64,000 nt of DNA. Source: Marsupella aquatica. Lineage: Eukaryota > Plantae > Marchantiophyta. The stretch lies in the NCBI GenBank assembly GCA_973895155.1, contig OZ316891.1:21628513-21692512 (forward strand), read 5' to 3'. The position numbers and the translations under genes were made by a program. Below the pieces are notes generated by a model that had not been told where the DNA came from, did not search any database, and saw only the letters and a list, made by a program, of their open reading frames with translations. Below are positions 3,710 through 46,320 of this stretch, in pieces; within the stretch, counting starts at the first letter, position 1; the number at the start of each line of letters is the position of its first letter.

Positions 3710-3913
3710 CTATTGTATATTGAAACATATAGCTAAAGATGCTACTAACATCAGGCAGTACTATACCTGGAGTCATACCCTTAATTAGGCACTCCCCCCT
3801 TTACTCTTATTGTAGGAAAGTAAATTAGGCACCCCCTTCAGTCAATCCAAGAGTGTCAAGTATCCTTTATTATAATGGTTGAGTAGCCCAATGTCCATAT
3901 GTTGTACACAAAA

Positions 3914-4355
3914 TGTCAAGGTGAGAAAAGATGTGAAGGACAGAAAAACAATTCAAGGACAGAAACTATGTCAAGGTGAGAAAAGGTGTCAATGAGATAA
4001 AAAAAATGTCAAGGTGAGGAAAAATAGAAAAGGTGTCAAGGTGAGAAAAAATTGTCAAGATGAGAAAGGATGTTGAGGAGGGAAGAGATGATAAGGTGAG
4101 AAAACGATGTAAAGGTGATGAAACAATGTTGAGGTGAGGGAAAGATGTCAAGGGTGAGAACCCGGGGTGAGACAAATATGTCATGGTAAGATAAAGATGT
4201 CAAGGTGATAAAAGATATTAAGGAGAAACAAAAATATAAACGAGACGTTACAAAGCCGGGGTGAGAAAAGATATCAAGAAGCAAAAAAATGTCAAGGTGA
4301 GAAAAAAGGTAGAGGTGAGAAAAAGATGTTAAGGTTAAAAACAATGTCAAGGTGG
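3914..4355 (+). repeat. Degenerate ~19-20 bp minisatellite (consensus GATGTCAAGGTGAGAAAAA), ~20 units
   Basis: Repeated tgtcaaggtgagaaaa motif. Confidence 0.9.
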
Positions 4356-8187: not shown

Positions 8188-8595
8188 TTTGACATATTTT
8201 CTAATCATGAGATCTTTTCTCCTTGACATCTTTTCCTAACTTGAACATCATTTTCTTGCCTTGACATCTTTTAATCAGCCAGGCATCTTCTTCTCAGCCC
8301 AACATCTTTTTCTCCCCTCCATATCTTTTCTCCCCTCGATTTCTTTGGCACTCCTCAACATCATTTTCTCTCCTCAACATTTTTTCTCACCTCGACATAT
8401 TTTCTTTTTCTCATATTGCTATCTTTGTCTCACCTTGACATATTTTATCTCATCTCGCAATCTTCTTCTCACCTTGATATCTTTATCTCATCACAACATC
8501 TTTTCTCACCTTAACATCATTATTCACCTTGCTTTCTTTTTCTCACCTTGACATCTTTTTTCACTTCAAGATCTTTCCTTCACCTTGATATCTTT
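8188..8595 (-). repeat. Same ~20 bp minisatellite as 3914-4355, in inverted orientation
   Basis: tttctcaccttgacatc units are the reverse complement of the left array. Confidence 0.9.
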
Positions 8596-24656: not shown

Positions 24657-27600
24657 AGGGCACTTATACCACCACTATTAATCAATAAATCAAACTCTGT
24701 GTTGGGAGGAGCAAGCGAGGTACCAAAACAGGAGCCTTTTCCTTGCCAAAAACAAAACCTGCCCGTACATAGCAATATGTGCAGTTCACTGGGAGCTGTT
24801 TTTACGATGCATGAGTATTCTGTTGATCTTCTGAATCCCCTGTTTTTGGCCAGAATTGGTCGGGGGCCTTTATTTTTAGACGATATAGTAACTCAATGAT
24901 TATGAAGCGACATCTACTGTAAGTGAAGTATATGTTGAGAGCAAATCTTAATTCACATGGTTTTCTACTACGTGCGAAATTCATATTTTGTCCTTTCTTC
25001 TTACGTGGATTATTTTTAATTAAGGATTTCCGTTCTAAAATTATATCTTATAAATCTTCTGATTTCTTCATTATGTTCCTAATGATGTCCTTTGTTACCA
25101 ATTTCTTTTTTGCCCACCCTTCACCGCTATTAGTCTTATACTCCATTCAAGTGTTACACATCACTAAAATTAGTCAGTATAATTTGAGTGACCAAGTCCT
25201 TTGTGACAAGAATATTTGTTTTGTAGTTGTGTATCTTTCCTACCATGATTAGTAACTACTGTGTGGTTTTATTCTCATTTTCCTGAAAGCCAGAAACAGT
25301 CCCATGCAAAATTGATGAGCTATTCACCCAAGGATAAGGGAATTTTGGTTTTGCAAACTGGTTTGGTCGGTCATTGCAAAGTTCTATTGGATTCTTAATA
25401 AAGATACACGTTCTGAATTTGACTTTTTAGTATTGAATATGTGGTTTCATAGGCCCAACTTGCATGTTCCCAGCCCTTCACAATGCAGTTGCCCCAAATG
25501 TCTCCCAGGCATGCAAGCATATCACTGAACCAGATGTATCCAGTTGAACATCCTGATGTACCAAGCCTGACGGCACCATCCATGCATTTTTTAAGGCAAG
25601 GTCTAGGAAGCTTTTTCCCAAAGGTACTAAGAGTGCAAATTAAGGGCCGCATGCTTGAATGAGGGGTCTCACATGCGAGTTGGCCCTAAAAGTTAAACAA
25701 CCTGGCCACCATAAATAATAGTGAGAAACATAGTGAATACATTGTTCTTGATTGCATATGTAAAACAATATTAGCCAATCGCTATATAACAGGCAGGTAC
25801 ATACTAGTATCACTCCAAAATTAACCTCTGAAAGATTAGGCTGTATCCTGGAATGTCAAAATTGCATAGAGTCACCCAAATAGCATTAGTAAGACTAAGG
25901 GTTGTCTTGCATGTGCACACTAGAAGAAACCGGCCCATTTTGAGACCTGAAGATGTGTGACTTGGCCAAGACCTTCATGAAATAGCGACTCCAAGGTTGT
26001 TGGTGTCATGTTAGTCACACCTTCTTGACTGAGTTTTGGTGAAGTTTTGCCAAGTCATGTTTACAACTTTTAGGTAAGTTGCAACTATAACTTAGTTAAG
26101 GCAATTAGGGTGAAGTTATACAAGTGACTCTACATTAGAGTACAACTTATGAGACCACTACATTTGAACCCTTAAACCTTAAAGTATGGGATCCGCGACC
26201 ATATACATATGATTTTGGATACACCATATGTCATTCCACATCAATTTAATAATAGTTTAGTCATACCATTCTAAACCATAATTACTCCTGACCCCATTTA
26301 GACACAATGAAGCCTCAGCCCCGTTCAAACCGAGAGCAGGCCGGCTTTGTCAAACCTTACTATTAACCTAACTTAATGCTTTTTGTAGTCAATCTCTAAT
26401 TTTCTCCATCTTTACCACTTGTCCTACCCTCTATACCAGCCATAGAACATTGGATGTCCAACTACTATATTTTTGCATGCTATATATATATATGCATATG
26501 AAGAAGGCTTGATCTTAGATAGCATTAGTTTTCTTTTAGGCTCATCATTTGTGCTCTTAATTAATGAACATGCAACAAGGCTATTGTAAGGTTAATCCTA
26601 GCCCTGTCCGTTCATTTAATCTTTGCTCATATTGTGTTGTGTCAAATTTGCTTTAGGGTTTACAGCTCATGTCAACGCAAAGTGGTCGAGTGTCACTGGG
26701 TTCAGTTCTCTCACTAAGTGTTAAGGTATGCATTGTGCGTTGCCTTTGGATACGAGTTTAGGGTGCGCGGGTTTTTCAACAGGAAACACACCAGCAGAGT
26801 GCAAATGGGAGTTGAAGGTGCGCGGGAACTCGGAGGTTTTTGTCAAGGAAAAACTTGGATGTCCATTGTGCTTACCAACAACCATCGTTTAGGGCGAGGA
26901 GCTTTACGGACTTCACTCCCGCTTGTCGTGCTTGAGTGTACATCTGCTCTCTATACTTTTGGGAGCTTTGGACTAGAGCAGATGATCGGAAGCCTCGGAC
27001 GAGAGACACAGACTCCAATATCCAGCTCGTAGATCAATCCGTGATTGATTTTGTCAGGTGTGCGACCTTCAAGCTCTTCTCCATTGTGCGCTTCCAGTTG
27101 AATGCTGCAAGGTCTGAATACTATCGGGAGCTTGCATTTGGGCCAAGGTTTAGGTATTTTGTCATTGGAGGACTGAGCTGTGGGTTTAGGCCGACTTACT
27201 ATGAGCTTATGTTGTTGCAACTGTGACCAATAACTGAGGAGCTGCGACCAGGAGCTTATTTTGTTGCAGCACTGCCGTGGACAAGGGGTTGTGGAGGATC
27301 GGGGAGCTGCGACGTAGAACTGAGGAGCTGCGAAAAAGTGGGGAGTGATCTTGAAGGCCAACTATCTAGCGTGAGGTGGATCATAGTGGTTGCAATAGCG
27401 ATCGGGCCCTTTTTTGCATTGGCATTGCCAGTAAGACAATCTGTGGATGCGCGAAAGAGTCGCAAGGAGTTGTTCTTGTGGGCAGAGATTGGAGTTCACA
27501 TTTGGTAAGTCCACCTCAATAATGACATACATTGTAGGTGGAGGCAATGTTATGGCCTCTTGTTGTCTTTAAACTCATTCTCCACTCACAAGAGAATGAG

Positions 27601-29037
27601 GATTGATTGTGTCCTGAGAAGCTTAACAATTTATGTTGTTGACATCGTCCACATTGAGTGACAGTGAGCTCAAGTCAGTGAGTGACCGATCGAAGGGGAC
27701 ATTTGTGCTCTTCATTACATGCTCGGGCAAGAGTGATTGATGTACTAATCGCAAGCGCTCCCAGGTATCCATTTGTCGTTAAGACTTGAAGCTTCACCGG
27801 GAGCTGCGACCGTCAGTGGGGAGGAGTTGGAGGTTGTGTTGCGCTCGTACACAACCTCCAAGGTACAAGGCAGGAGTTGTGCAATTTAAGGTGAGAGTCA
27901 GTAGCTTTTGGGATTCACCATCTTTCATCGTTGTCATTGCTGCTCTCGTCTATCGCTACGGCCGATTGCTGCTCTGCGTTTTTGCCATGGGTTGCCAGTC
28001 TGCCAGATGTTGAGTGAGACAGAGGCTACAACCTGGGTGCGCGGAGGTCCTCACTAATCCCATGGTTTACAGTTTGCAAAATGTGACAGCCCCAGTGCAT
28101 AGTGAGGTATAGGGTGTGTGAGGTATAGGGTGTTCTTACTCGTGCTACAGTCGCTTTGACTTGCTGAGTTCCAGCAAATTGAGTTTTAGGTGCGGTCAAT
28201 GAGAGTTGAGCTGTTTGAGCTGCGGTCACTGAGAGTTTAGAGTTTGAGCTGCGGTCACTGAATGCTGGCATTGAGGTGCACGCCCTTCACATTGATCAGT
28301 GAAGGCTACGGCCGGGGTGATTATGACAGTGATTCCAATGCAAACCGTCCAGGTAAGATTTATGTGACATTGTGTACAATGAAAGTGGCCCTGCTTATTG
28401 ACTGCTTAATGTTTGTGTTGCAACTGGCAGCAGATGCATGGAGTGCAGCGAAGGGAGGCGCTATTCATGTGAGCTGACAGGGGAGCTGGACTTGTGAGCC
28501 GTGGTTGCAGCTACGTCTTGGAGCTACGACCTATGAGTTGCGGCTAGAGCTACGACTTGACCTGAAGGTGACGCATGAAGAGTAATTTTGCAATCCATGA
28601 ATGTTTGTACTCAATGTTATAGATGCATAGGGTGGGTGTTGCATTTTGTTACTATAAAATGTCCGTGATGTCGTGAGATGTTCTGTTCCTTGGATTGAGA
28701 CAATTCTTAGATCTCTACATCAGCGATTATTATATGTCATGTCTCACCTCAGATCATGAACGTGATTGGTTGGAGACTATATTAATTGGGGAGGAGCTCC
28801 AATCCGTTGTCATTGCTTCTCAGTGGAGTGTTGTTTTAGTAAGCTACAGGGGGCAACAGAGCGCAAGTTGCTGTTTGCAAGTTCACGCCTGCTACCTGCT
28901 ACCTACGACTTCCGCCTGAAAGGTATGACATTCACATATGCGCATTTCTGGTCTCCAGTTGATCAATGTACTTATTCCCGCTGCCTTGAAATGGACCTCA
29001 AATTTCCATGCTCCAATACGCTACTGTGATCGAAGCC

Positions 29038-29175
29038 TATCACGATGCAAAAATAGAGGAGAGGCAGAATCAGAGCCCGGACACCAACGTGTACAGATAT
29101 CACGAAGCTAAAATAGAGGAGAGGAAGAATCAGTGCTCGGCTCGGACACCAAAGTGTACAGACATCATGAAGCTA
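29038..29175. repeat. ~60-bp tandem repeat (~2.3 copies) in the CACTA leader
   Basis: tatcacga.gc.aaaatagaggagagg.agaatcag...cggacaccaa.gtgtacaga repeated. Confidence 0.85.
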
Positions 29176-31101
29176 ACTACAAGCTAGCAGATAGGTCAAA
29201 TGCTCCCAAATCGAGTCAGAGGAAAGTTACTAAGACTACCTTCACAACTCTCAAGTCTGGAAAGTAAAAATCAGCCTGAGACACGTAGCAAGAACTGTTG
29301 TCTGCTAGGAACTGTTGTCTGCTTTCTTGGGGATCGTCATGTGTATGTAATTGCATACACATTCTACCTGAGGGGAGTATGACTGTACACCTTAGGTAGA
29401 ACCAAGTACTATCTATCGCATGATATAATTCCTCTACAATTTTGTATTAATGTTGCCTAAGTGCTTTGTTGTATTGTTTTGGTTGTAATGACGTCACTTG
29501 CATTTCATAGTCAGTCTTAGTTGGTTGGCTTGGTACTCATTTGCTTTTCACTCCCTCTGGCTAGTGAATTTGTCTATTGTTGCTGAGTTTTTTGCGTAAG
29601 AACTACATGTTCTTCACTTTCTTGATCGTACTCTCTCCCCTATGGAAGACTATTGGCTTGGGCTGCCAGCCTTCTCTCTGTTTCAATTTGTTGTCCCTAT
29701 GGTCAAACACTACTTGGTTAGTGGTTTTGCTCTATTTTTGTCTGTTTTGCCTTCAAGTAGGACATGGATGAATTGAGCTTGGAGGCAACAAAATGGCAAG
29801 GAATCTGAATGGTTCCAGAAGTATGTGTGCTGCATTTTGATCTGGAGAACCAATTGTAGAGTTGACTCTTTTTGAATGTTGTAGTCTATTTTGCCTTGAA
29901 CTGGGCCATGGATGAATTGAGCTTGGAGGCAGTTTTTTTCATTCCCATCTTCCTGAAGCCTTATCTGCTTTCTGCCACCCCCTTGTGGTGGGGACTTTTC
30001 TTGAAAGATCCTTATTGTGAACAGAGTTTGTACTTTGATTATGAAGTTTGACTGAGTTTCTGTTTACTGAAAGAATGTGACTGTGTAAGAGTTCCGTTTG
30101 GCAGTGGATTGGTTGAAGCACTTCCTGCTAGTGTGTTGTCCACAGCTCTTCAACCAGCTTTTGTATTCCTTGTCTTTCACCACTTACGGTGACATCAATT
30201 CAGCTAAGACCATAGAAGGTTCCAAGGCATCTAACTTGTAAAATCGCATTCTGTTACATCAAGGACTAAGGTGTTGGGTGCCAAAGGAGACAGCACAGCA
30301 AACATGCTGAAAAGACTTCAGGACTGGGTTCAACAAGGTAGTGAAGGTGCTTAGAGCCATAGTAAGTATGCATTCTGTATCCTTTCTCTGTTGATGTGAG
30401 CTTGTGCATAGTAGGAGTTGTAGTTGGCAAGAGTTCCATAAGGCCAAATATGAATAGTTCCAGAAGTATGTGTATGAACCAAGTGTAGAGTTGACTCTTT
30501 CTAAATATTGTAGTCTCTTTTGCCTTCAACTGGGCCATCGAGTACTGCTAGTGTATTCACCCCAATGAGCAATGCTTCTCCATTCAATCAGGTGAACGTA
30601 CAGTTTGGTAGGGCCAATGCCATGTGATCATGTACTTGCTCTATAAAATTCTGAAGATATAAGCATTTTCTGTTAGACCAGGCAACTTGGGAGTTGCTAA
30701 GTGTCACCTGCATCTGAGGGGCTACACCGGGGGCATCAGTGGAGGTTCACTTGCACAACACGACAGCCAGTGAATTTTCTCTCTGCTGCAACCTGCAAGG
30801 TGAGACTTTTGGTCCTTCTGGATGAAAAAACAGGATTTTAATATGATTGATATACATGTCCGTCGAGAACATGGGTTTATCACCAAGCTCTTTGTCTTAG
30901 GAAACTCATAAACTCAGAATCAAATATGTACTATGCACGTTTCATGCTATGTGTATACTATGACCTGTAGTTGGAACCAAGACAGTGAGTGGGAACTGAT
31001 TAGTTTAGGTTGGTTGTTGTTGGCGAGGCAAGTCGACCTCCTGCTCGCCTTGCTCATCAAAGGACGTGAATAGAGGACGTCACAACAAAAGCAACACTTA
31101 A

Positions 31102-31551
31102 ATGGTGAGGACCCGCAACGCTGAACATGTGCGGCTTGCACGCAAGGCAGAGATGTTGCGCCTTGAGTATGTCAGACTTGGGATCCTTCCAGCCCAGTCT
31201 GCATGGTACTTTGAGTACCCTGTTGTTTCCAGGAACAACTACAGCCGGCCTCTACCTGCTTCAGTACCCTTCCCGACATCCTTGGTATTTGTGTCTCTTG
31301 TACATGACCCGCCACAAATTAGGTGCCAAGGGTGTGTGCACAGTTGCCAATATGACTGTCCTGCCTGTAGGGCTTCTGGCCCAGAATTGGATGACCGTTC
31401 TCTTGGATGCCGATTTTTGCACAGAGCACAATGTATCATCTGGAACCACTCGCCATCCTGCAGTGTGCCTGGTGATGTCACTTGTCCTGCCCTCCCAGAC
31501 CCCACCACTGGTGGATTTGGTGTCTACACATGTTTGGATCACATGCTCTAG
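31102..31551 (+). CDS. CACTA cargo ORF 1: 149-aa Cys/His-rich, putative zinc-binding protein of unknown family
   Basis: ATG start MVRTRN; CxxC-x3-C-x3-CxxC...C...H...C pattern; upstream intron-like segment (donor 30799, acceptor ~30970); co-oriented with the other element genes. Confidence 0.5.
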   Translation: MVRTRNAEHVRLARKAEMLRLEYVRLGILPAQSAWYFEYPVVSRNNYSRPLPASVPFPTSLVFVSLVHDPPQIRCQGCVHSCQYDCPACRASGPELDDRSLGCRFLHRAQCIIWNHSPSCSVPGDVTCPALPDPTTGGFGVYTCLDHML

Positions 31552-32165
31552 AGGACCACTTGTCACACCACATGCATAGACCAGATACCATTGACCTATA
31601 GCTTAACACTCTGCCTTCAACACAGAGGATATTTACTTAAAATTTTGATGTATGAGCAATTTTGGGTCCAGGGTTTAGGGTCAACAGTACATAACTTATC
31701 CTAGTATGCCTGCACTAAGCAAAATATCCTAATTTAAGAGGCTAGCAAACTCGCTTAAAAGTCTCTATTGAAAGACTACTTTAATATTGCTTTAACCTGG
31801 TGAACATTGCAACGTTGAATGAATTAATGGGCCATGTGATAATATGCAAAATGTGATTTATGCCTCACTTATTTGTCTCAGCCACTATCATAACCTATTT
31901 AGGATGTATAAATTTCAACCCTTATGACACTGCTTCATACCAATCCTCTTCAAAGAATGCCTGTTTTACATGTCACGACTATTGTATGTGATTCAAATGC
32001 ATGAAATGTTGTTGCAGATCTCCTTTGGTGAATCATAGCCACAATTAAAATTGAGGTGTTGGTGGAGAAATTGTATTAGGGGATCAGTTTTGTGTGTGGG
32101 CTCAACATACCCAAAGTATGTGTGCTCTGCATCCTTGTGTGGCCATTCCAATTCATTGCAGTAGC

Positions 32166-32309
32166 AAATGCCTTTGTACCTTAAATGCTAAATATATTTT
32201 ACTTTCTGTGCAGTCTGCTAAATTGTAGAGTCTATCTAAATGCCTTTGTACCTTAAATGCTAAATATATTTTACTTTCTGTGCAGTCTGCTAAATTGTAG
32301 AGTCTATCT
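32166..32309. repeat. Perfect 72-bp tandem duplication just upstream of the PHD ORF acceptor
   Basis: aaatgcctttgtacc...gagtctatct twice. Confidence 0.95.
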
Positions 32310-32320
32310 CATGCGCAGGC

Positions 32321-33001
32321 ATGGCACGGCCTAAAATTCAAGCCAAAAAGCGTGTGACAGAGGTGAGAAACACAGGTGTACTTGGGGCAGATGCTACTAA
32401 CTTCTCTGCAAGTCAAATTTTCCAAAAGGCAGCTCATTGTTGTGCCATTTGTGACGATGGTGGGGGCCTGGTCATTTGTGAGGGCCCTTGCATGAGGCAT
32501 TTCCACCTCAACCCGGAGTCTGACCTTGCTGCAGAAAACAACTGTCCAGGGGTGGGCCTCCCGTCAACACACCAGGGAGACTGGATGTGCACTGATTGTT
32601 TGGAGAAGCAGGCTAAGTGTGCACAGTGTGGGAAGTTGGGGTCCTATGAGGGCTCTGTTGATGCTGCAGCAAATGTTAGAAAATGTCCAGACCGTTTTTG
32701 TGTGAGATTTTTCTGTTTTGAGTGTTTGCCTGCTCATGCCACAGCTTGCCCACTTCATAGGTGCAAGGCATGTGGTGAGCATGATGATGACTACTGGACT
32801 GACATAGTCCACTGTGCTAGGTGTCCCACTATGTGGCACTATCATTGCCTGAAAGATCATCAAGCAGAGGGTTATGCTTGTGACAGAGAAATCTATGATC
32901 ACTCTGCACATGGTGTTGATTGATGGATATTTTATTGTCATCGCCATGCCATTGATCCTACCTCGCGCACTCCTATGAGAGATCACATATCTTGGCTGTG
33001 A
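32321..33001 (+). pseudogene. CACTA cargo ORF 2: EDM2/NSD-type PHD-finger cluster (~226 codons) with one in-frame TGA at 32921
   Basis: CAICDDGGGLVICEGPCMRHFH...CTDC...CAQCGKLGS...CPLHRCKAC...CARCPTMWHYHCL; reading through the stop gives WIFYCHRHAIDPTSRTPMRDHI, matching EDM2 'LIYCxxHEIDxxLxTPxRDHV' (recalled, not aligned). Confidence 0.85.
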
Positions 33002-33593
33002 AGCTGAACATTGTACATGCACAGTGCACCTGATGTGGATGTACTATTTTTTGAGATTGCAGAGATTCCAATTTTGAAAAGGAGTTGGGTAGGCGAGTTT
33101 ATATAGGCAGCACTTATCTTGTGCTCTGGCGTCAGTGGCTGGGTACATGCCTATACAAACTTATCCTTACAAGCCTTCTTGGAAGTATTTAGGCTGAGTG
33201 GTCATTTTCATAAACACTTTCATCAGACTGCTAAATTAAAACAGGACTTCTAAGTTGTAAGCATATAAATTATCAGGCATGCAATTAATCAAATTGCCCT
33301 ATAAGTTTGTCATTGAATGTATCCTCCTTTACAACAAAATATGTATGTGCCATGACCAGTTGGTTGCACTTCATTTCACCACGGATATGGATTTTGTAGT
33401 ATATATTCAAACAATGTCCTGCATCCGTGCAGGTGCCTAGTACGTATTGTTCACATATCCCTTGTACCTATCAAAATCGGACCTGAGTACCAGTGGGCCA
33501 GATCAACTCAAAAAGCAGGAATTTTGTTGTCCTTATATTGTCAGGTGAACCCATTCTTCCAAAATTCACTGTCATCACGTAGGGTGTGTGTAC

Positions 33594-34463
33594 ATGGAGC
33601 CTGGGAAACGTAGAAAGTGTGACCACCCAGCAGTGTTTACAGGGGTCAGAGCGATTTTGGTCCATGGCCAGCATGGGTTGACCAAAGTGCATTGGCCAAC
33701 TGTACAGAAACGATTCTCTGAGCTCCATGGCACTGTAGTTCAGGACATCACTCCAGAGACTACACATGTTGTTGCAGGGACATGGCTATCAGTGATAAAG
33801 AAGTGGTCATGGTACATGAATTCTGCAATTACTAAGCAAGGCCTAAAAGTAGTTGAGGCCTCTTGGATCACAGATTCCATAGCACATAAGATTGTACAGG
33901 ATACTGAGCAATATGAGTTGTGGGAGGATGAAGAAGCTACTGCATCAGCTTGGGCTGAACAAGAAGTCTGGGAAGCAAAGGCACGGCTTGCTGATCTCCA
34001 ATATGGACCTGTACTCAACAAAGGACAGAGCTCTACAAGGCTGAAGAGTATGTTGGCTGAGGAGACGAAGCAACCAACCCCCATTCTGAAAGGGCTGAGC
34101 ATGGTATTTGTGGAGGCGGGAATTGGAGAGGTTAAGTGCAAAGTGTACAAGTCCACAGTGCTTGACCTAGGTGGGACAGTGGAGGAGAATATAACAGAGG
34201 ACACCACTCATGTCATTACTAAGTCATATCCCAAAGCCTGCCGCAAGTTTGGGAAGGGAGACATTCGCTTTTATGTCATGTCCCATAATGTGTTTGTGGT
34301 TTCATATGCTTGGCTTGTGGAATCAGTAGCAGCTGGGAAGCGTCAAAACCCAATGGACTATGATCTTTTTGACGCCTGGCCACGGAAGGGTCAGGATCCT
34401 TACAGAGAGGACTATGAGACAACAAGTGAGGAATGGGTCATTAGCGATTCTGAATCAGAGTGA
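33594..34463 (+). CDS. CACTA cargo ORF 3: intact 289-aa tandem-BRCT protein, BRCTs resembling that of plant DNA polymerase lambda
   Basis: Two units VF/LxG...GGTV/HGTV...TTHVV/I...SWITDS/AWLVES...YEL/YDL; basic NLS-like KRRK after the ATG at 33594; acidic C-terminal tail. Confidence 0.85.
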   Translation: MEPGKRRKCDHPAVFTGVRAILVHGQHGLTKVHWPTVQKRFSELHGTVVQDITPETTHVVAGTWLSVIKKWSWYMNSAITKQGLKVVEASWITDSIAHKIVQDTEQYELWEDEEATASAWAEQEVWEAKARLADLQYGPVLNKGQSSTRLKSMLAEETKQPTPILKGLSMVFVEAGIGEVKCKVYKSTVLDLGGTVEENITEDTTHVITKSYPKACRKFGKGDIRFYVMSHNVFVVSYAWLVESVAAGKRQNPMDYDLFDAWPRKGQDPYREDYETTSEEWVISDSESE

Positions 34464-34896
34464 GGAGTAGTAGCATCAGTTTGGACACAAGTTTTTTTGT
34501 ATAAATCAGATCATTGAAATAAATGTGATCTTTGAACTAATGTACCTTGTTATGGTTGGTGGCAGTTGGGCTTATTTTACTGTTGGCGGATTGTTGTTTC
34601 CTACTGCCTGGGGGTGTCACTGTAAACGTACATGCAGAGGCGGTACATTTGAGGACAGCGGAGGAGGTGGTGACACCCTCCAACATTTAGGAATTTTGTG
34701 TCATTCACTTGACAATAGGTACACTACTTGCGAACCTGTTTTTTTCTTTTGGGGTGGTTTAGGGTTTGTGAGAATTTAGTACACGTTATGTTAACTCTTT
34801 TGACAGATACAGTCAGGGATATATGGAACACAAATACCACCATTAGGCATCCTTGTTCACTGCTGTCCATGACTGCAGAGCTCCCAGCCTGTTACA

Positions 34897-37464
34897 ATGC
34901 ACCCTGGTCACCACCCTCCCCAGACCCAGCCCAGGGCACAGGCACTGCCTTTGCATCATCCCACAAGGATATCACGCCATGATAATAAGCTTTGGCAGCG
35001 TGAAAGGTTACGAACCAGACTTTCAGGAGCCAGTAGGATGAGATGGCCTTGTGCAATCTGCCAAGGATCCCGTACCAGGGGTCTGAATGAGGTTTGGCGG
35101 CATATCGCGGTTCATGGAAGAGATCCACGACATCGAGTTTGGAATGATCCTGCAGAGGAAGATTCTTCCAATGCTCAGGCAGCACCACGTGACGAAGGAA
35201 TTCATGTAGAAGAGATGGTGAGAGACATCTTCCAAGACTTGGATGCATTTCATGATGGGCTAGACAACGAAGAGGATACGGCTGTAGATGCAAGTGTGCC
35301 CCCTGTCGAAGAGCCTCTTGATGAGTTTGAGATAGGGCAGGAAACCCCTGGGCATGATGGGATGTTTGGCTCTCCCGTGCAAATACAGGAAGGTAGGAAG
35401 TCTTTGTACCCCGGTAGCAAATGTTCTAAACTGGGATTTGTCATCATGTTCCTGAACATTTGCGGCAACCACAATGTCCCCAACGTTTTGGTTTCTGAGT
35501 TGTTGGCATTCTTGCGAACAACTGTGCTACCAGATGGTAATATTTTGCCCAAGAACATGTACGAGGCAAAATGATGCATATCTAATCTTGGATTGAACTA
35601 TGATTCGATCCATGCCTGTCCTGATGGGCATGTTCTTTTCAGAAAGGAGTATAAAGAATCGTTGACATGCCCTAAGTGTGGGAAGCACAGGTATCGGAAC
35701 TCAGGAAAGTCTATGGTTCCCGCCAAGGTACTTCGTCATTTTCCACTCATTCCCAGACTTCAGCGGATGTTCAGAAGCCGTGCGACTTGGGCAACTGACA
35801 AGAAAAGTGATGATGGGCTACAACGACATGCTGCAGATTCAAGGCAATGGAAACTCATAGATGAGATGTATCCCGAATTTGCTGCTGAGCCGAGGAATGT
35901 CAGACTTGGGCTGTCATTGGATGGGGTAAACCCATTTGGAGACAAGAACAACAAATTTTCGTGCTGGCCTGTAACTATTTTGAATTATAACCTTCCTCCT
36001 TGGATGACTACAAAGCGATTTTTTGTTCTGATGGTCCTATTGATACCAGGGCCAGACAGTGCTGTATCTGCCAACATAGATGTGTTTCTGGCTCCCCTAG
36101 TGGAGGAATTGAGAAAGCTTTGGGAGGAAGGAGTTCTCACATATGATGTCCTACAGAGGCTTGGGAGGTTAAACCCATTCATCCTTAGAGCCATTGTCAT
36201 TCTGACTATAGCTGACTACCCAGCCCATGGGATGATATCAGGCCAAACAACAAAAGGATATTGTGCTTGTACTATCTGTGGGCGCAATGTCACCAGTGAG
36301 TACTCCAGAGCCCTGCAGAAAGTGATATACATGGGCCATCGTCATTTTCTGAAGGCAAATCACCCTTACAGAGAAAGACAGGCACTGATTGCACACTTTG
36401 GCAATGAGATTGAGCAACGTGGACCCCCGGCACGAGTGACCAAAGAGGAGATCAGGCAGTGGGGAGCATTGAGGGATGACTATATCAAACGAGGGGGCAG
36501 GGAAGATGGAGTGAGTGATCCAATAAAGCGATATGGTGTAAAAAGACTGAGCATATTGGACTTGGAGCTCAAGTACTGGAGGGTAAGCCTCTTGGAGTTG
36601 ATGCTAATTGGGATACATGTTTTGGTTCAGAGCATGTGCATTCATTTCGAAGAGAGAGACTAAACTTGAGGCATTTCCTGACGCTTTTGCATTGCAACGA
36701 TGCAGGAGTTTGAGCCAAGCAAACATAACATTGATGTTATGCACATTGAAAAGAATATTTGTGAGAGTCTACTCAGATTCTTGTGTGGAGAGAAAGACAC
36801 TGGTTCAGTGAGATTGGATCTTGAACAGAGGGGAATGAAACCCCATCTTTGGTTGAGGCCACATGCCCACAGAGCTGATGTGCTCTTGAAGTACCAAGCG
36901 CCCTATGTTCTGACAGACACAGAGTGGGAACTATTTGTGCAGAGGTTGAGTTCTTTGAAGGTTCCTTCAAACTATGGCAGTGCTTTCAAGAAGCATATCA
37001 TGACTAGAAAGCTTGGTAGTATGAAAAGCCATGACTACCATATGTTGATGCAACAGGTGTTGCCTTTATGCCTGAGGGGCCTATTGCAGAAGCCTGTTCG
37101 TACTGTGATCATGCGACTCAGTGATGTGTTTCGTCGTATTTGTGTGAAGGTTTGGGATGAAACACACTTCCCACAACTGACAGAAGATGTCGCTCAGGTG
37201 CTGTGTGACCTGGAGATTTATTTTCCTCCCGCATTTTTTGATGTCATGACCCACCTACTTGTCCATGTTGTGGAAGAGCTACACCAATTTGGGCCTGTGA
37301 GTGCTCGTTGGTTGTACCCTTTGGAACGGTACATGAAGCTACTCAAAGGTCACATGAGAACATATTACAAACCTGAAGCAAGCATGGCTAAAGGTTACAT
37401 CAAGGATGAGACTCTGGGATTTCTGACCGAATACATAGCACAATATGAGCATGTGAAGACCAGG
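34897..37464 (+). pseudogene. TnpD: TnpD/Tnp2-type CACTA transposase: exons ~34897-36582 and 36706-~37464, premature stop at 35572, C-terminus deleted
   Basis: Transposase-associated motif WPCAIC...VWRHIAVHG; YEAK*CISNLGLNYDSIHACPDG; RNVRLGLSLDGVNPF, YNLPPW, ADYPA; intron 36583-36705; HNIDVMHIEKN, KSHDYH, FPPAFFDVMTHLLVH, RWLYPLERYM; homology ends abruptly after QYEHVKTR. Confidence 0.95.
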
Positions 37465-38153
37465 GCGTCCTGCCAGTTCTGTTTTGCCTTCAAAGCCTGT
37501 GCATGCACCATACCAGCAGGGGGGGCTGACCTCTGATCAAGGTTGGCGAGGTGGTAGTAGTGGTAGATCCCAGGCTGGTGCCCAATACTATGGCAGGGGG
37601 CAAGCTCTAGGTTATGCCCGTGGTAGAGGCAGAGCAGGTCCAAACCCACAATCTCGTGGGTATGGACGTCCACCTCAACCATGGGGATGTGAGTATATAT
37701 CTATATGCCAGTTCTTTGTGAAGGCATGGCACTCCTGAATTTCAGACTGCATATCAATTTTTGACATTGTTTGGGATGTATTGGATTCAGACAACATGAA
37801 ATTCTGTCCACCTGCCATTGCATGCAGATTCTGCCCAACCTGATTGGGCAAATGCTAGTAATGATCAGTTCCAATGTCCACAAGGACAGACATGGGTTGA
37901 ACCAGGTTGGGAGGATGGTGGTGGGTCGTGGAATGAACAAGGTTGGGAAGGTGGTGAAGGTAATTGGCAGGGATATCAAAATTCAGTACCTACAAACGCT
38001 GGAAGAGGGGCAGGTAATGTCTGATCTTGTCAGCAATGGAAGAACTCATTATATGTGGAGTCCATTCACGTGGGGGGGACTCTGCACATGTATAATGATA
38101 GAAAATGTATGTGTGCAGGTTGGACAGTTGAACCATCGACTCAAGTATTCACT

Positions 38154-39388
38154 CACTAGAAGAATCCGAGGTGAACTGAGACCGCAATATATGACTCATT
38201 TTGGCTCATGTGACTTCATTGTGACTCAACGTGACTTGACCCACGCTGTGACCCTTGGAGTTGCAAAAGTTGAGACCAAAAAATGGAAGTCACTATTGAT
38301 ACTGGGCTTTGCAACTTGCTTGATACCCATTTGTGACTGATCTGTGACTTTATTGTGGAGTCTAGCCTTGTTTCGACGTGACTGCAATATGACTTCAGCG
38401 AGTCACATCGTAAGTCACATACATGACTTACCCGCATTCAACAACGACTAGCGTGTGACTATTTAGTGTCACAGTACATAGTGTAGCATAAATTACATAG
38501 CTAGGCCATTCATTCTTACCAAACGTTTAGCTGTCAGTGCAGTGCCGGTCCTTCCTGTCAGATTAGGGTTCTGAACACTCAACCTGGCCTCGGTCATCTG
38601 TGAACTCTTCTTTTTTGAAGCATCTGTTACAAAATAAGCTACTAACCTTGCCCACACTTTATCATCACAACTGGCTGGTGGAGGCATATCTGGCTTCTCC
38701 CCACCTTCCTTCCAAGCCTTATGCATTCTCCACCTCTCTTGCTTGATGATTTTACCTGCTGTACTCTCTAGGCAACCTATGTCCACGCCATCATCACTGC
38801 CCACATAATTCCATTTGGCAGCAACATTTTCACATACAGTCTTCCAATCTTTTGGATGCTGTTTTTTAAAATTAATAACACTCACATCTAACCAACGCAA
38901 TACTTCAGCTTTCAAATCAGCATGCCATCGGTTCTTGCAAGGACACTCAGCATCCACCCATTGTCTCTCATTCAACTTTACGTTCCCTTTCTTTGTCACC
39001 TCCCCTCGTGCACTGCTCTCGGTAGTATTGGGCGTTGTATTGGCCACCCCTTCATTCACCCTACCTGGGGTTCTGAAGCCACCTGGGAAAATACAATGCC
39101 ATTCATGCTTGAGAACTACATATAGCAGAATGGATGACGGCAACATTCAATGCTTCACTTCAAGAAAAATTCTTCAAACATACATACCTGTAGCTCTGCC
39201 TGTAGATGCCTGTGCAGGGACTGCACTCTGAAATTGTTGCGACCCTGGACCACCTGTCTAGCCTAGTACAGGGGCCGGATGATGTCACTTTCTAGGTATG
39301 TGTGTGCAAACATATGTACTGAAAACTAAGTACAAACTGTAGGAAAACAACTGAACATTCACCGACATACCTGTCCCCCTTCCGTGCT
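38154..39388 (-). mobile_element. Inverted copy of the CACTA right end (44457-44777) fused to a copy of 41522-42437, lacking the ~2.0 kb between them
   Basis: Begins CACTAGAAGAAT preceded by ACT; near-identical reverse complement of the two segments; junction at 38473-38474 with 2-bp CT microhomology; contains the duplicate 217-aa ORF 38493-39146. Confidence 0.95.
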
Positions 39389-39410
39389 GCATCTGCATAG
39401 GGGCATTAGT

Positions 39411-41521
39411 CACTAGAAGAAACCCACCCTTTCTGAGACCACAAAGAATGTGACTTGTCCGAGACCTTCATGAAACAGCGACTCCAAGGTTATTGGTGTC
39501 ATGTTAGTCACACCTTCTTGACTGAGTTTTGGTGAAGTTTTGAGGAGTCATGTTTACAACTTTTAGGGAAGTTGTAACTATAACTCAGTTAAGGCAATTA
39601 GGTTGAAGTCATACAAGCGACTCTACATTAGAGTACAACTTATGAGAGCACAACATTTGAGCCCTTCAACCTTAAAGTATGAGATCTAACCCAATACATA
39701 TGATTTTGGATACACCATATGTCATTCCACATAGATTTAATTCTAGTTTGGTCATACCATTTTAAACCATGCCATTACTGAGTATTCCATCATTATTCCT
39801 ACCCCCATCTAGACACCATGAAGCGCGCCCCAGCCCCATTCAACTGCAAAAAGGATTTGTCAAAGCTTGCTAACCTAACTTAATGCTTTTTGTAGTCAAT
39901 CTCTAATTTTTCTATCGACGTCTTCTGGTCGTGCCAAAGGCGTGCTTAATTATCACCCAATTTCAGCCTCACATATGTAGGTTGGGTTTACTTATTGCCA
40001 TGCCCCAGAAACCACCATGTTTCCCCGGCCCCCTTCATATATGACAACCAATGCATGCTTCATGTTCAATATAAGTCCAACTTAAATGTCCAACTTAAAT
40101 ATATATGATCAGCTCTTCACTACCCCAACCCTAAAAAAGTGTTCTTCATAATGGTAATGTGGGGTCATACCTGAATATTTGGCCACATTTTCACCAAAGG
40201 GGGTGGTTCAAAGTTGTGACTAACCACTCACCCCACATATAACTAAATTGCGTAAGTCCTTTGGTTTCAAAGGAAAAAACAAATTAGGCAAATCATAGAC
40301 TTTTGTGTCTCTTTTGTGAACTAATGTCTCCACTTCAATGGGAAGACAAGTGAGTGGTCTTCACGTTCGGCATTTCTCTCCCGCACAGGGTTTTGGGAAG
40401 GGTCTCCAAGGGAGTTGGTTTGCCTCAAGGGTTTGCAAGCCAAACGGAAGCTTTGCGTGCCATCGTCATTGAGCTGGTGGGAGGTCATCGAGGTCTTTGG
40501 AAGAGAGAGGTCGAATGCCTAGCGCTACCGGGTGAGGAAGTAGAGTATGGCAATGCTGCAACTTTAGGGATTTTATGACATCCTACTAACGACTGTTATT
40601 GGACCCGGCTTCCAGTTTTGGCGTTGCACTTTTTGAAGTTGAGGTTGGACCTTATTGCGGCCCGATGTGTATACACTCCTAGCCTTGCCGTCCTGAGCTG
40701 CGAAAGGGTTCTCGATTCTGTCCTTCTGCTTTCGTTGATCGTTGGGCAATGTGAGTAGTAGGAGGCGAGAAGAGCGAGTGTGTGTTGCATTGAGAAAAGG
40801 GAATGTGAGTAGTAGGCATCAAGAGTGATTGTGTGTTGCATCGACAATAGGCACTACGGGAAGCACTGTGAAGAGTTTGCGAGAATTTAATTCAACATTC
40901 AATAGACACTCATTCCTTGAAGCTAGGAGAGTGAATTCGATATTCAGTTGCAACTTGGGATCGAGAACCAGGAGCTTGTCACTTGGCTTGCATTTGGACT
41001 ATTCTTGCTGCGGATTGCTACGCAGCACGGCTTGGTGCTGCATCGCCCCAGGTAAAGCTGCAATCCCTATCTTTGCGGTCCTACGTCGCTGCAAGTTTAG
41101 TTGTCTCCCCACGGTCTTCTGAGCTTGGTGTCCATAGCTTACGGTGAGCATTGGAAGATCAACCTAGCGAGCATTGGAAGAGCGTTCGATCAAGTGTGGG
41201 TACAACATGCTGATACCTTTGAGCTGGGAGAGCTCAGAGAGTTGAGCTGCAAAGCTTGTAGTTGCGGACTCTATTTCAGTTTAGGCGAAAATGTTTTTGG
41301 TCTTTAGAGCTCATTGTAATGCAGATAAAAACTTTCAGTGTTTTTGGAGGTAAGTGAGTCTATAGAGGCGCTCAACAAACGCAAGGACCTGTTCTTGGGA
41401 GCAGAGAGCTGCAATACTGATCAACTGAAATTGGATGAGAGTGAGTCCAGGCCCTGCGGAGCTGAACTTAGCTGAATGACAAAGATTGAGCGTGCGCGGC
41501 TGAACTGAAGTGTGGCTCAAT
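39411..41521 (+). mobile_element. Second, diverged CACTA left end with its own non-coding leader
   Basis: CACTAGAAGAAA preceded by AGT (reverse complement of ACT); 39411-~39910 aligns by eye with 25918-~26405 with many substitutions, then diverges. Confidence 0.9.
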
Positions 41522-44419
41522 AGCACGGAAGGGGGACAGGTATGTCGGTGAATGTTCAGTTGTTTTCCTACAGTTTGTACTTAGTTTTCAGTACATATGT
41601 TTGCACACACATACCTAGAAAGTGACATCATCCGGCCCCTGTACTAGGCTGGACAGGTGGTCCAGGGTCGCAACAATTTCAGAGTGCAGTCCCTGCACAG
41701 GCATCTACAGGCAAAGCTACAGGTATGTATGTTTGAAGAATTTTTCTTGAAGTGAAGCATTGAATGTTGCCGTCATCCATTCTGCTATATGTAGTTCTCA
41801 AGCATGAATGGCATTGTATTTTCCCAGGTGGCTTCAGAACCCCAGGTAGGGTGAATGAAGGGGTGGCCAATACAACGCCCAATACTACCGAGAGCAGTGC
41901 ACGAGGGGAGGTGACAAAGAAAGGGAACGTAAAGTTGAATGAGAGACAATGGGTGGATGCTGAGTGTCCTTGCAAGAACCGATGGCATGCTGATTTGAAA
42001 GCTAAAGTATTGCGTTGGTTAGATGTGAGTGTTATTAATTTTAAAAAACAGCATCCAAAAGATTGGAAGACTGTATGTGAAAATGTTGCTGCCAAATGGA
42101 ATTATGTGGGCAGTGATGATGGCGTGGACATAGGTTGCCTAGAGAGTACAGCAGGTAAAATCATCAAGCAAGAGAGGTGGAGAATGCATAAGGCTTGGAA
42201 GGAAGGTGGGGAGAAGCCAGATATGCCTCCACCAGCCAGTTGTGATGATAAAGTGTGGGCAAGGTTAGTAGCTTATTTTGTAACAGATGCTTCAAAAAAG
42301 AAGAGTTCACAGATGACCGAGGCCAGGTTGAGTGTTCAGAATCCTAATCTGACAGGAAGGACCGGCACTGCACCGACAGCTAAACGTTTGGTAAGAATGA
42401 ATGGCCTAGCTATGTAATTTATGCTACACTATGTACTATTTTTTAGTGTAAACCCATACATGTAAACTTTGTTTTTTAGTGTACGTTCCCTGAATATTGA
42501 TCGATAACTTGTGTTTGCCATGCATGTGCAGAAAGCCCAATTGGGGCAAAGCCCTTCAAAAGAAGAGTTGAGGGCTGAAATTGTGAACACCCGGGCTCAA
42601 GAGGGTGCATCTGAATCCTCCAAGCATGTAAGTTATATGAGTTCTGATTGGTAATTGAATGACCTGCGTTGAATTTCAGGTGTACACTGTATATAACATT
42701 GATTGTGCATATATTGCCCAACATTTCATATGGAGTGATTGAACCTATACCCCTGTGTCATGTAGGGAGGTGGATCTTCACTTACAGAGATAAGTGGTCG
42801 TTTGAAGGCTATCGAAACATGTCTTCCAGAGATCAATGAACGTTTGAATTCATTGACTGACTTGTTCCATGTGAACTTCAAGACATTAATGGAAGCTTTT
42901 GTGTCGGTGAGAGATAAAATTGATTCCAATTCTGCAGGAGTTCCACCATCACCACTTGAGGTGGCAAAGTCGATGCACTCTTCTGGCATGCCAACGACAT
43001 GTAGGCTTGAAGGTAAGGCCTTTACAACTGTGTGGGATATGATTATTAAATGTATAGTTTGAATTGACATTGTTTGTTGAATGTGTTATTTTCAGTAACA
43101 TATATTGTGGTTGTTGTGTCCATAGAGAATAAGGCAGGTGCTACAGAGAAGAAGTATGAGAACCTGGCAAATACTCGCTGTAATTTAGAGGCAACAAAGT
43201 TGCAGTCTGTACAAGCAACTTGTTTGACAGAGGGCAGTCAACCATGTTTGGATGAGGATGACATTGGCAAGGGAGTGGATGATATCAATGTTGGGGCAAA
43301 TGAGGATATCAGCAAGCATGACAATGATACCATTGAGCCAGATTCATGCTATGTAGATCTTGACTCCATTGCAGAGATAAATGATTTGCAGAATGTATCA
43401 TTCTCAATGACAGGTGTGCCTCTTGTTGAGATAAATCCAACCAAAGAGTTAGTTGGTATGACACTCCCAGGTGATGAACCTGCTACTGTGACAGTCCTAA
43501 CAGAGGAACCTACTGAGCCTAGCTTCACTACTGTGAAGAGAGGAAGCATGCGCACACGAAGCAAGTCTGCTGGTGGGAGCAGAGCCACGTCAAAGGTTTC
43601 ATACAAACCTCCAAGAACAGTGCTGGTAGAAAGATCTAAGGTGGAAGTGGGGAAAGCACCTAATGCTGAGGGACAAAGTGGCTTGTTAGCTGTTGATGAG
43701 AGTGGAACACGAGTAGGATTTGCCAGAGTGCAGGTTGGTTCCACAACGTTCCATGGCAAGAGGATTCCCCCAGGTTATTCAGTAGTGTTAGTCACATTAC
43801 TAGTGAAACCTAAAGCTGTCCTTCCCATTTCAAACACAAATGATGATCCTCCTCAAAAGACACTTGGAGATGCTGCAGGTTCTTTGGTATTATGGCCAAG
43901 CAAGTTCATAGAGGATCCATAACAATGTCATGCCATTATTTGTTTGTAGTGTGAGTCATGTTATGTAGATTTTAGATGTCAAGAAGCAGTACAAGAATCA
44001 TGTCCTCTTGGAGATTCATAGTATCATGCATGTGCTTTCAGTTATCTCATCCTACAGTCATCAATTATGAGTTCCTGTTTTGTCTGAATTACATTGATCA
44101 CATTGTAAACTATTCCATTGGAATTCAAATGATCTTCATTTTTTAGCAAGATTGTGATTGTGTTTAATTCTTATGAATGTTTTATGTAGGATCTGCTTAT
44201 ATGATGCTTTGTTTCATGTGGATGTCATTCATGCTATGTTCATTTCTTGTATTCAATGTGTTATATTTCTAAAGTTAGAACATCAGGTTTCTATGTATTG
44301 TAATGTCAAGTGCTCTCTCTCCTTATGAACTGTCCCTCTGTGTTCATTAGTCATGGTTATAACTTGCATGTGAACCTTATTAGTTATAAACATGATTATA
44401 TAGAGTCCCAAATGGTTCT

Positions 44420-44777
44420 GTTGTGTGACGCGAGCCAGGGTCTCCATTGGTCTCTCCTGTGACACTAAATAGTCACACGCTAGTCATTGTTGAATGCGGG
44501 TAAGTCATGTATGTGACTTACGATGTGACTCGCTGAAGTTATATTGCAGTCACGTCGAAACAAGGCTAGACTCCACAATAAAGTCACAGATCAGTCACAA
44601 ATGGGTATCAAGCAAGTTGCAAAGCCCAGTATCAATAGTGACTTCCATTTTTTGGTCTCAACTTTTGCAACTCCAAGGGTCACAGCGTGGGTCAAGTCAC
44701 GTTGAGTCACAATGAAGTCACATGAGCCAAAATGAGTCACATATTGCGGTCTCAGTTCACCTCGAATTCTTCTAGTG
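44420..44777. repeat. CACTA right subterminal array of GTGACT/AGTCAC motifs (putative TnpA binding sites)
   Basis: >15 gtgac/gtcac motifs in both orientations next to the TIR. Confidence 0.8.
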
Positions 44778-46320
44778 GCAAGAGTCCTGAAAAGTGTGAC
44801 CCTTAGCAGCCCATAGATGTAGGGGAAAAGTGTGGGACCCAGGAACTAAACACAATCAAAAACAGCTTACGTGTAGGTGAAGTGCTTATTCAGTCGGATC
44901 TACTGCCATTTTTTGTATTCAAAGCTTTAAGTTTGGGACCTCAAGGGCCGGCCCTTGCCCTTGCATATCCTCCAAAGACGCAATCAGGACTGCCGGCTTG
45001 TCGCTTTGTTTGGGATGCCATGGGTTCATTTGAGGGCCGAAAATCAAAGGACTTTGCACATGCAAGACGGCCCTAATAGTGGTGGACATTGCAGGCTGGA
45101 CTGTAGGAAACCCCCGAGGAAACCTAGACTCCCTCTTTTGTGCTTTTGTGTAGGTCTTTGAAGCTCACTTAGCAACAGTGACACCTTGAAGCTGATATCA
45201 ATGTCAGTGTGCATTTACACCGTTTAATCGTAGTGCTTAGGTTTCAACTGTGCTTAGTTCTCTCAAGTCATGGAGCACACCTAGCCTGTTGTGTCAATCC
45301 ATAATTTGCACAATTAAGTACAGAACTAAGGTTACCCATGTTTAGTTACCATTTTCTAGAGGTCCGTGCTATTTCCATAATCTACTGCCCCAAAAGTCAT
45401 GATTGTTATCTTTATTCTGCACTAAATTATGTACTATACTGACGGTCTAAGCTTGGGTCCCAGAATGCTCAGGAAAACTTTTTGCTATAGCTGGTCAGTT
45501 TTTCTTTGTTCAATCCACTCATGTTCTCACAACCATTTCTCCCCCATCAGGCCCGAGCTCCTTCTGTGTGGGGGGGGGGAGGTCACTTCCATGGAAGTGG
45601 CATATCATGTGTGATGAAGGATAGGGCCATTTAAATGGATTTTGCGGAAAATATATTAAGTCTTCAAAGGAAATATAGGTCGGGTTCTTTAATAATTGCA
45701 ATAATTATGCATAGTTACATGTCATCAAATGAGTGGTGTTGTACAACTTTATATGAAGTGACTCAGGGGGTCATAAATGACCCTTGAAACCTTTGCATGT
45801 GATATAGGTACTCCATATAGTGAACCCCTGAGCTGCCGAGCAACCTTCCGCCCCTGGATATGATTGATATACCATATTGTATGTTTTACAGCCTCTTTCA
45901 ATGCCTACAGTAGAACTTACATTCTTTTTGGCAAGAGCAAAGAGTGCAGTACTTTGACACTTGAAGCGATTCTATTAGGATGTCTCAAAACCTGGCCATA
46001 CCAGGACAATGTCTTGGATCCCATGCATAAAATTAAGTTGTGGGAGCCAAACTTAATTTGGCTCCTGCGAGGAAAGCTTGTGGGTCCAACATTTAAGCAA
46101 TGACCTTAATAACTTTCCAATAACTTGACTAACAAATTCAGAAATCCAAAGATCTGGAAAATCTGTGATCAAAGGCACATGGGCTTGGGGCCTAATGGGG
46201 TAATGCTTGCTGCATTTGGGGGGCTGGTAATTCCAAGAATGAAAAAAAGTGGATATAGAGGCTATATGAGAGTGAGGTGAGGCTTTCACCCCGCCTTACC
46301 TGGCGGGTCAATGTTGCCTC

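Follow-up and report, generated by a model that had tools for sequence, protein, structure and literature searches.

A PHD gene with an internal stop codon

In the window (the whole stretch of 64,000 nucleotides that was analysed), an ATG at 32321 opens a frame of 200 codons on the forward strand, which is closed by a TGA at 32921-32923 (Table 1). Beyond this TGA, the frame stays open for 25 further codons, up to a second TGA at 32999-33001. When 32321-33001 is translated straight through, with X for the single internal TGA, the product is 226 residues long and consists of a basic N-terminus (MARPKIQAKKR...), three Cys/His-rich fingers and a tail. Three Pfam models of the NSD type match this product in the order PHD-1st_NSD (residues 39-93, E 4.7e-5, 23.9 bits against a cut-off of 27), PHD_NSD (residues 96-140, E 3.6e-3, 18 bits against 23.9) and PHDvar_NSD (residues 148-180, E 7.4e-5, 23.1 bits against 27). 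All three remain under the gathering score; they are nevertheless not chance matches, since the profile and EDM2 tblastn matches described below are strong. Some relatives of the ORF do exceed single Pfam cut-offs (P0004 with 27.7, P0005 with 27.8, and P0011 with 31.2 and 28.3 bits).

The original prediction had described a stand-alone, intronless module of consecutive PHD-like fingers inside a transposon, with a new basic N-terminus, a tail of the type FYCxxHxIDxxxxTPxRDHI behind one TGA, an end directly after this tail and no methyltransferase-like domain. This description was borne out. The fingers match their three models in order and are colinear with EDM2 224-432, the N-terminus reads MARPK...KKR, the tail can be aligned with those of EDM2 and a Marchantia protein, and the natural stop follows DHISWL. 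No intron interrupts the frame of the window ORF. Its 226 residues include neither the DNMT1-RFD N-terminus nor the long C-terminal part of EDM2, SET and PWWP were not matched by Pfam in the ORF or in its relatives, and CACTA termini with a GCA duplication enclose the gene.

Table 1. Features of the PHD gene and of the transposon sequences around it, in window coordinates.
Feature	Position	Strand	Remarks
Left target-site duplication GCA	25915..25917	.	GCA also at 44778-44780, after the 3' terminus
5' terminal inverted repeat CACTAGAAGAAACC	25918..25931	+	Exact pattern match
Perfect 72-bp tandem duplication	32166..32309	+	100% identity (repeat search); ends 11 bases 5' of the PHD ATG
PHD gene, codons 1-200	32321..32920	+	Basic N-terminus, finger 1 (C41...C93), finger 2 (C100...H146), most of finger 3 (C148...C178)
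Premature TGA, codon 201, particular to the window copy	32921..32923	+	Arg/His in relatives, CGG in L001
Conserved tail WIFYCHRHAIDPTSRTPMRDHISWL and natural stop of the family	32924..33001	+	Last Cys-x2-His zinc pair of finger 3
Twin-BRCT ORF, intact, 289 codons	33594..34463	+	Pfam BRCT, E 1.6e-12, two stretches
TnpD-like transposase frame	34873..37536	+	Transpos_assoc (weak), Transposase_21 (E 1.2e-70), DUF4218 (E 1.4e-27)
Inverted 3' part of the element	38151..39410	-	3'-type terminus CACTAGAAGAATCC at 38154; ACT and AGT at the bounds
Transposase_24-like ORF	38493-39146	-	Within the inverted piece 38151..39410
Second, short tandem element	39411..44777	+	Own 5' terminus; 3' terminus at 44764-44777, then GCA
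Transposase_24-like ORF of the second element	41764-42417	+	
3' terminus CACTAGAAGAATTC	44764-44777	-	Imperfect reverse complement of the 5' terminus, then GCA

The PHD copy in the window is a pseudogene and cannot make the full protein, because the premature TGA falls within a predicted beta hairpin, so that finger 3 loses its last Cys-x2-His pair. With C206 and H209 behind TGA codon 201, the window copy does not have the full set of zinc ligands in one product. The stop is not fixed in the family. The corresponding residue is Arg in all five of the first relatives found, and among the aligned full-length relatives it is Arg in nine of ten and His in the other. The prediction had further proposed that the TGA derives from CGA. 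Here, the Arg in the relatives agrees; the only relative with known DNA (the metagenomic locus L001) has CGG, and CGA itself was not seen. The ORF is strongly depleted in CpG, with an observed/expected ratio of 0.23 against 0.58-0.60 in the flanks, and TpG+CpA is raised to 1.68 against 1.15-1.20. Given this depletion, the Arg in the relatives and the CGG in L001, a CGA to TGA change is the likely origin of the stop, judging from sequence composition and alignment. Position 32921 does not appear among the 40 differences listed, out of 624, between contigs of the public runs and the window.

Upstream of the ATG, each unit of the 72-bp tandem duplication has a TATA-like stretch, TAAATATATTT, and a pyrimidine-rich stretch, ...CTTTCTGTGCAG, that resembles a splice acceptor. 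The units may conceivably carry promoter or splice-acceptor signals.

The host CACTA element

The PHD ORF sits 6.4 kb into a CACTA element, and downstream of it follow a twin-BRCT ORF and the transposase genes, all on the same strand. The element ends in inverted repeats of the CACTA...TAGTG type. The first 40 bases of the element and the reverse complement of its 3' end have CACTAGAAGAA in common, and then TGAGACC. The GCA on either side constitutes a 3-bp target-site duplication, for which a chance match would be expected in 1 of 64 cases. The BRCT ORF starts 593 bases downstream of the natural stop of the PHD gene; two stand-alone proteins, of 294 and 295 aa, are related to it at 59% and 54% identity, and it may serve the element as a second accessory gene. 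The TnpD-like transposase frame that follows is open over 888 codons, save for a TGA at 35572 and three stops within 36661-36681, and these three may represent a short intron. Transposase_24, the TnpA-type domain, is matched weakly (E 1.6e-4, below the cut-off).

A second 5' terminus, at 39411, is 82.5% identical over 510 columns to 25918-26403. Through the inverted repeats I1 and I2, at 99% identity, 38154-39388 corresponds to 44777-44457 plus 42437-41522 in reverse orientation. In the public runs X1 and X5, contigs connect 38150 to 39410 on opposite strands. Reversing the inversion 38151-39410 in silico yielded no longer frame across the joint. This arrangement suggests an autonomous element of ~13.5 kb, consisting of 5' terminus, PHD, BRCT, TnpD-like and TnpA-like genes and 3' terminus, with a 5.4-kb short relative directly 3' of it. 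The last 1.26 kb of the first element would have been inverted by reversed-ends transposition, leaving an inverted 3-bp duplication.

Is the PHD gene a regular part of this element? Depth was summed from contigs with at least 90% likeness to the window in four public runs (914, 5167, 10627 and 454 contigs). In X1-X3, the PHD bins reach a summed contig depth similar in order of magnitude to that of the transposase bins (in X1, 3281 against 2221-2585) and 10-100 times that over 25.9-29.7 kb. Summed depth is no copy number; it is taken here only to indicate that the PHD segment and the core of the element are repeated jointly. Seen across the element in three runs, the coding core at 30900-39100 has 10-100 times the summed depth of 25900-30300 and of 39.8-41.6 kb. 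The terminal region found here may belong to a rarer subfamily.

Nineteen further ORFs of at least 110 aa in the window, 15 of them outside the element, matched no Pfam family. Two arrays of degenerate 18-20-bp repeats (AAGGTGAGAAAA-like), at 3910-4354 and 8216-8595, lie in inverted orientation ~4.3 kb apart and may be subterminal repeats of another DNA transposon.

Relationship to EDM2 and NSD proteins

By its sequence, the window ORF is an EDM2-type (NSD-like) triple PHD module. Residues 224-432 of A. thaliana EDM2 (ENHANCED DOWNY MILDEW 2) match window positions 32438-32995, across the TGA, with an E value of 1.5e-16 (tblastn); the rest of EDM2, and of the liverwort proteins discussed below, had no tblastn match anywhere in the window. 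The intact relative P0002, which is 81% identical to the window ORF, aligns with EDM2 225-432 at 30% identity (E 8e-27) and with residues 598-811 of the Marchantia protein P0017 at 35% identity (E 4e-31), and both alignments reach the final residue of the tail. The tail itself, aligned with EDM2 413-432, follows finger 3 with the motif YCxxHxI[DE]xxxxTPxRDH[IV] and reads YCQEHEIDEELLTPVRDHVKF in EDM2, YCTNHSIDKNLNTPKRDHIKW in the Marchantia EDM2-like protein and YCHRHAIDPTLHTPARDHISW in the stand-alone family.

The predicted kinship with EDM2 and NSD proteins was recovered in profile searches. A profile made from the window ORF and its five first relatives (six sequences) matched NSD2 647-837 at E 8.9e-11 and NSD3 at 1.3e-8 among PDB sequences. 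Among 1.84 billion representative proteins, it matched 564 at E<=1e-3 and 231 at E<=1e-10. A word-based search among longer proteins had given no relative; the exhaustive profile search did find them. Many of the matches are proteins of ~1200-1400 aa with the module near residues 220-430 and, according to Pfam, with DNMT1-RFD and NSD-type fingers. By exact look-up, one cluster includes A. thaliana EDM2 (1297 aa), other named matches are 'ENHANCED DOWNY MILDEW 2-like' proteins of mango and Neltuma, and all matches named in this way are EDM2 or EDM2-like. The best long matches are liverwort proteins, from Marchantia, Riccia and Calypogeia.

The stand-alone gene thus shares with EDM2 three consecutive NSD-type fingers and the tail, and PHD-1st_NSD, PHD_NSD and PHDvar_NSD match EDM2 too, in the same order. 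It differs from EDM2 in being a transposon gene of 226 aa instead of 1297, which ends at the tail and falls into a separate clade. DNMT1-RFD, which Pfam finds in EDM2 and in eight other long matches, is absent from the 226-aa family, whose members begin ~40 residues before finger 1. The ~860 C-terminal residues that follow the PHD module in EDM2 have no counterpart in the stand-alone family, and ~20 residues that EDM2 has after finger 2 are missing in all of its members. With the histone methyltransferases NSD1, NSD2 and NSD3 (PHD1-3 and the PHD5-C5HCH tandem), the similarity lies in the profile match to NSD2 and in the fold of NSD3 PHD5-C5HCH (see below). On the other hand, the gene described here is found in a plant transposon and is devoid of the SET and PWWP domains, and finger 1 of the stand-alone family has 10 more residues between His and Cys than that of NSD2.

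A family of stand-alone PHD genes

A word-indexed search gave five first relatives of 217-245 aa, with 81, 75, 52, 37 and 37% identity to the window ORF at 97-100% query coverage. Four of the five begin with MAR and all end with DHISW[LIF], with the stop within 8 residues of this motif (directly after DHISWL in the window). With one N-terminally truncated member of 187 aa added, the stand-alone family spans 37-81% identity to the window ORF. Ten members are full or nearly full (P0002-P0006, P0009, P0011, P0178, P0179 and the window copy). Others are decayed: P0010 departs in the tail from a sibling with which it is 91% identical, P0013 departs after finger 2, and P0012 and P0016 are truncated. 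Forty columns, mostly Cys or His, are invariant in nine members, and in the tail C206 and H209 do not vary among 43 aligned sequences, EDM2-like proteins included. The preservation of start, stop and zinc ligands down to 37% identity suggests that the stand-alone family is under constraint.

A metagenome scan produced L001, a real locus of 1867 bases, and L002, a match of 23 residues. Positions 529-1200 of L001 hold a decayed member of the family, with an in-frame TAG at codon 22 and otherwise open to DHISWL and the stop. No transposase was found on the 1867 bases of L001. The intact relatives come from contigs of 1-13 kb that offer no context, and the intact ORFs that a protein database contains do not sample a multi-copy family without bias. 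That the whole family is borne by transposons therefore rests on one window and on the depth figures, which are no copy numbers.

How does this family relate to the cellular proteins? A phylogeny, which the original prediction had proposed as a check, sets the stand-alone proteins apart as one clade from 124 EDM2-like proteins. The tree is a quick, unrooted maximum-likelihood tree of 135 module sequences (142 of 169 matches, those spanning profile positions <=45 to >=203, minus seven near-duplicates). All ten stand-alone rows, together with one long-branch row of 257 aa, lie on one side of a branch with an SH-aLRT value of 94, and the 124 EDM2-like rows lie on the other. A starred split (97) puts the stand-alone rows and 27 others outside a clade of 98 that has the named angiosperm EDM2 proteins. 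The stand-alone clade is deep and outside every seed-plant EDM2 group, and the nearest group on the tree is a liverwort clade with proteins of 619-768 aa.

These liverwort proteins (Mp1g03210 of Marchantia polymorpha and those of Riccia sorocarpa, Marchantia paleacea and Calypogeia fissa) are, among cellular proteins, those closest to the transposon clade. Five of them (P0015, P0018, P0019, P0026 and P0031) have the same PHD module at their C-terminal end, and three of the five end 5-6 residues past the tail. They differ by an additional 400-520 N-terminal residues, which belong to no Pfam family and are unmatched in the window. On the unrooted tree, liverwort paralogues that end at the tail raise the question of whether the module travelled from host to element or in reverse.

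Fold of the module

The AlphaFold model of P0002, made with 43 aligned sequences, is a single compact module of residues ~27-226 (pLDDT 86.2, pTM 0.80), with disorder in residues 1-25 only. A model made with only 6 sequences had a pLDDT of 47.4 and was set aside. The tail belongs to the predicted fold: it contributes strands 192-196 and 199-204, and the last three residue blocks have pLDDT values of 94, 89 and 83. The residue that corresponds to the stop codon of the window copy sits in the hairpin formed by these two strands.

Residues 93-218 of the model superpose on PHD5-C5HCH of NSD3, known with H3(1-15) and H3K9me3 peptides, with Z values of 5.7-5.9 and an rmsd of 2.6 over 81-83 residues. 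Finger 1 superposes on the PHD fingers of TRIM66, AIRE (PHD1), BAZ2A and BHC80 (Z 4.2-5.6, 24-44% identity), which were solved with unmodified H3 tails. With Z values this modest (<8), as is usual for small zinc fingers, the matches speak for a fold class, not for a function. The top Foldseek rows, with E values from 3e-5 to 5e-3, were the PZP modules of BRPF1, JADE1 and AF10; at a TM of ~0.2 and an rmsd of 12-13, kinship with these was rejected and the match put down to shared PHD content.

What could a transposon gain from a PHD protein?

We are highly confident of the identity of the locus, namely a stop-broken copy of a stand-alone EDM2-type three-finger PHD gene inside a CACTA transposon, beside the transposase. 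The window copy is dead, and the interest lies in the family. In Arabidopsis, the PHD fingers of EDM2 bind H3K9me2 and other marks (excerpts of PMC7472560), and EDM2 recruits AIPP1 and ASI1 to intronic heterochromatin, favouring distal polyadenylation (excerpts of PMC7472560 and PMC7529245). The intact members of the family would likely bind the H3 tails of silent chromatin, with K4 unmethylated and K9 methylated. As accessory proteins of a reader-only kind, they would be competitors of host readers on the chromatin of the element itself, and this competition would ease either the silencing of the element or the premature termination of its transcripts. The element would likely be enabled in this way to read the marks by which it is silenced, and possibly to blunt them. 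The original prediction had offered three possible functions: help with transcript completion, a dominant-negative shield and the choice of target sites.

A competitor role is the simplest one, because the protein has no effector part. A benefit limited to the element is not obvious, however, since a protein with neither effector nor sequence specificity would act genome-wide. Taken as a whole, identity and reader-only competitor together, this best explanation strikes us as about evenly poised between right and wrong. The competitor mechanism by itself is more tentative, as we infer histone binding, the marks that are read and every benefit to the element. With the same reserve, it is conceivable that a high-copy CACTA family took over the histone-reading head of EDM2, long kept it under selection and paired it with a tandem-BRCT gene. 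It would thereby have gained a private reader of silent chromatin, possibly also of DNA-damage marks, for counter-silencing, targeting or the choice of repair.

Four other explanations have to be weighed. The PHD protein, perhaps together with the twin-BRCT protein, could serve integration or repair as an adaptor that tethers the transposition complex to a chromatin state. Insertions would then be steered into heterochromatin, as with the chromodomains of chromoviruses, or the repair of excision breaks would be channelled. Reader domains in transposons do accompany targeted insertion, as in chromodomain and Tudor Gypsy elements (excerpts of PMC12477816, citing Gao et al. 2008). In the window, two ORFs of reader type, PHD and BRCT, both with conserved stand-alone relatives, are adjacent to each other upstream of the transposase, and the 19 ORFs without a Pfam family, 15 of them outside the element, are compatible with a gene-poor setting. 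However, the reader is a separate small protein that is unfused to the transposase, and a single insertion is uninformative on site preference. We regard such an adaptor as rather unlikely.

A closer imitation of EDM2 is distinctly improbable. The protein would in this case recruit AIPP1 and ASI1 of the host, so that RNA polymerase reads through a long heterochromatic element to its distal exons. EDM2 does so at genes with intronic transposons (excerpts of PMC7472560 and PMC7529245), and the autonomous element as reconstructed would be ~13.5 kb long, with its TnpA-like part at the far end. All of EDM2 outside the PHD module is missing, however.

Could the gene be there for no reason at all? 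CACTA elements capture host fragments (excerpts of PMC13317346), and a fragment acquired by a Pack-CACTA-type capture might have been amplified as a neutral passenger without any function. The stop in the window copy, the TAG at codon 22 of L001 and the frameshifted or truncated P0010, P0012, P0013 and P0016 would all fit such a history. It is nonetheless very improbable for the family. Drift would not leave the frame open at 37% identity, yet members this distant preserve start, stop and zinc ligands. Moreover, they form a deep clade that is nested within no seed-plant EDM2 group.

The proteins of En/Spm are made by alternative splicing, and a splice-acceptor-like stretch lies ~40 bases 5' of the ATG. 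It is nevertheless scarcely credible that the ORF is one exon of a larger spliced product, which might also contain exons of the BRCT or transposase genes, or that it is a host gene caught between two elements. The MARP start and the stop after DHISW[LIF] are conserved in distant relatives; moreover, the ORF is located inside the termini and on the strand of the transposase, and contigs cover it in the same way as the remainder of the core.

Comparison with other transposon-borne factors

Chromatin readers of transposons are known mainly as fusions to the integrase of retrotransposons, and the anti-silencing factors carried by plant DNA transposons are of a different kind. Repbase reports and subscription journals aside, full-text searches turned up no earlier account of a transposon with an EDM2-type PHD gene, and the accessible text of a 2026 review of gene capture by plant transposons (PMC13317346) has no mention of PHD or histone. 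Integrase-fused readers in Gypsy elements and anti-silencing genes of Mu-like elements are known already. For binding studies and structural work, the family also offers a natural minimal PHD module of EDM2, ~200 residues long and confidently modelled; the structure of the EDM2 reader is itself unsolved.

The chromodomain and Tudor readers of Ty3/Gypsy elements, chromoviruses and others, are similar in that a transposon has a reader of histone marks (excerpts of PMC12477816). Theirs, however, are fused to the integrase of a retrotransposon, whereas the one described here is a separate gene of the PHD class in a cut-and-paste CACTA element, and its kinship with a named host factor is clear.

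VANC is a sequence-specific DNA-binding protein and has, to our knowledge, no host homologue of known function. Like the PHD gene, it is an accessory gene of a plant DNA transposon and is thought to counter epigenetic silencing; it is the anti-silencing factor encoded by VANDAL elements, which are Mu-like (listed among the references of PMC13317346). The CACTA gene, in contrast, is a histone-reader module. If the proposed role is correct, the element would be borrowing the host's own tool in the conflict over silencing, as EDM2 itself acts at heterochromatic transposons.
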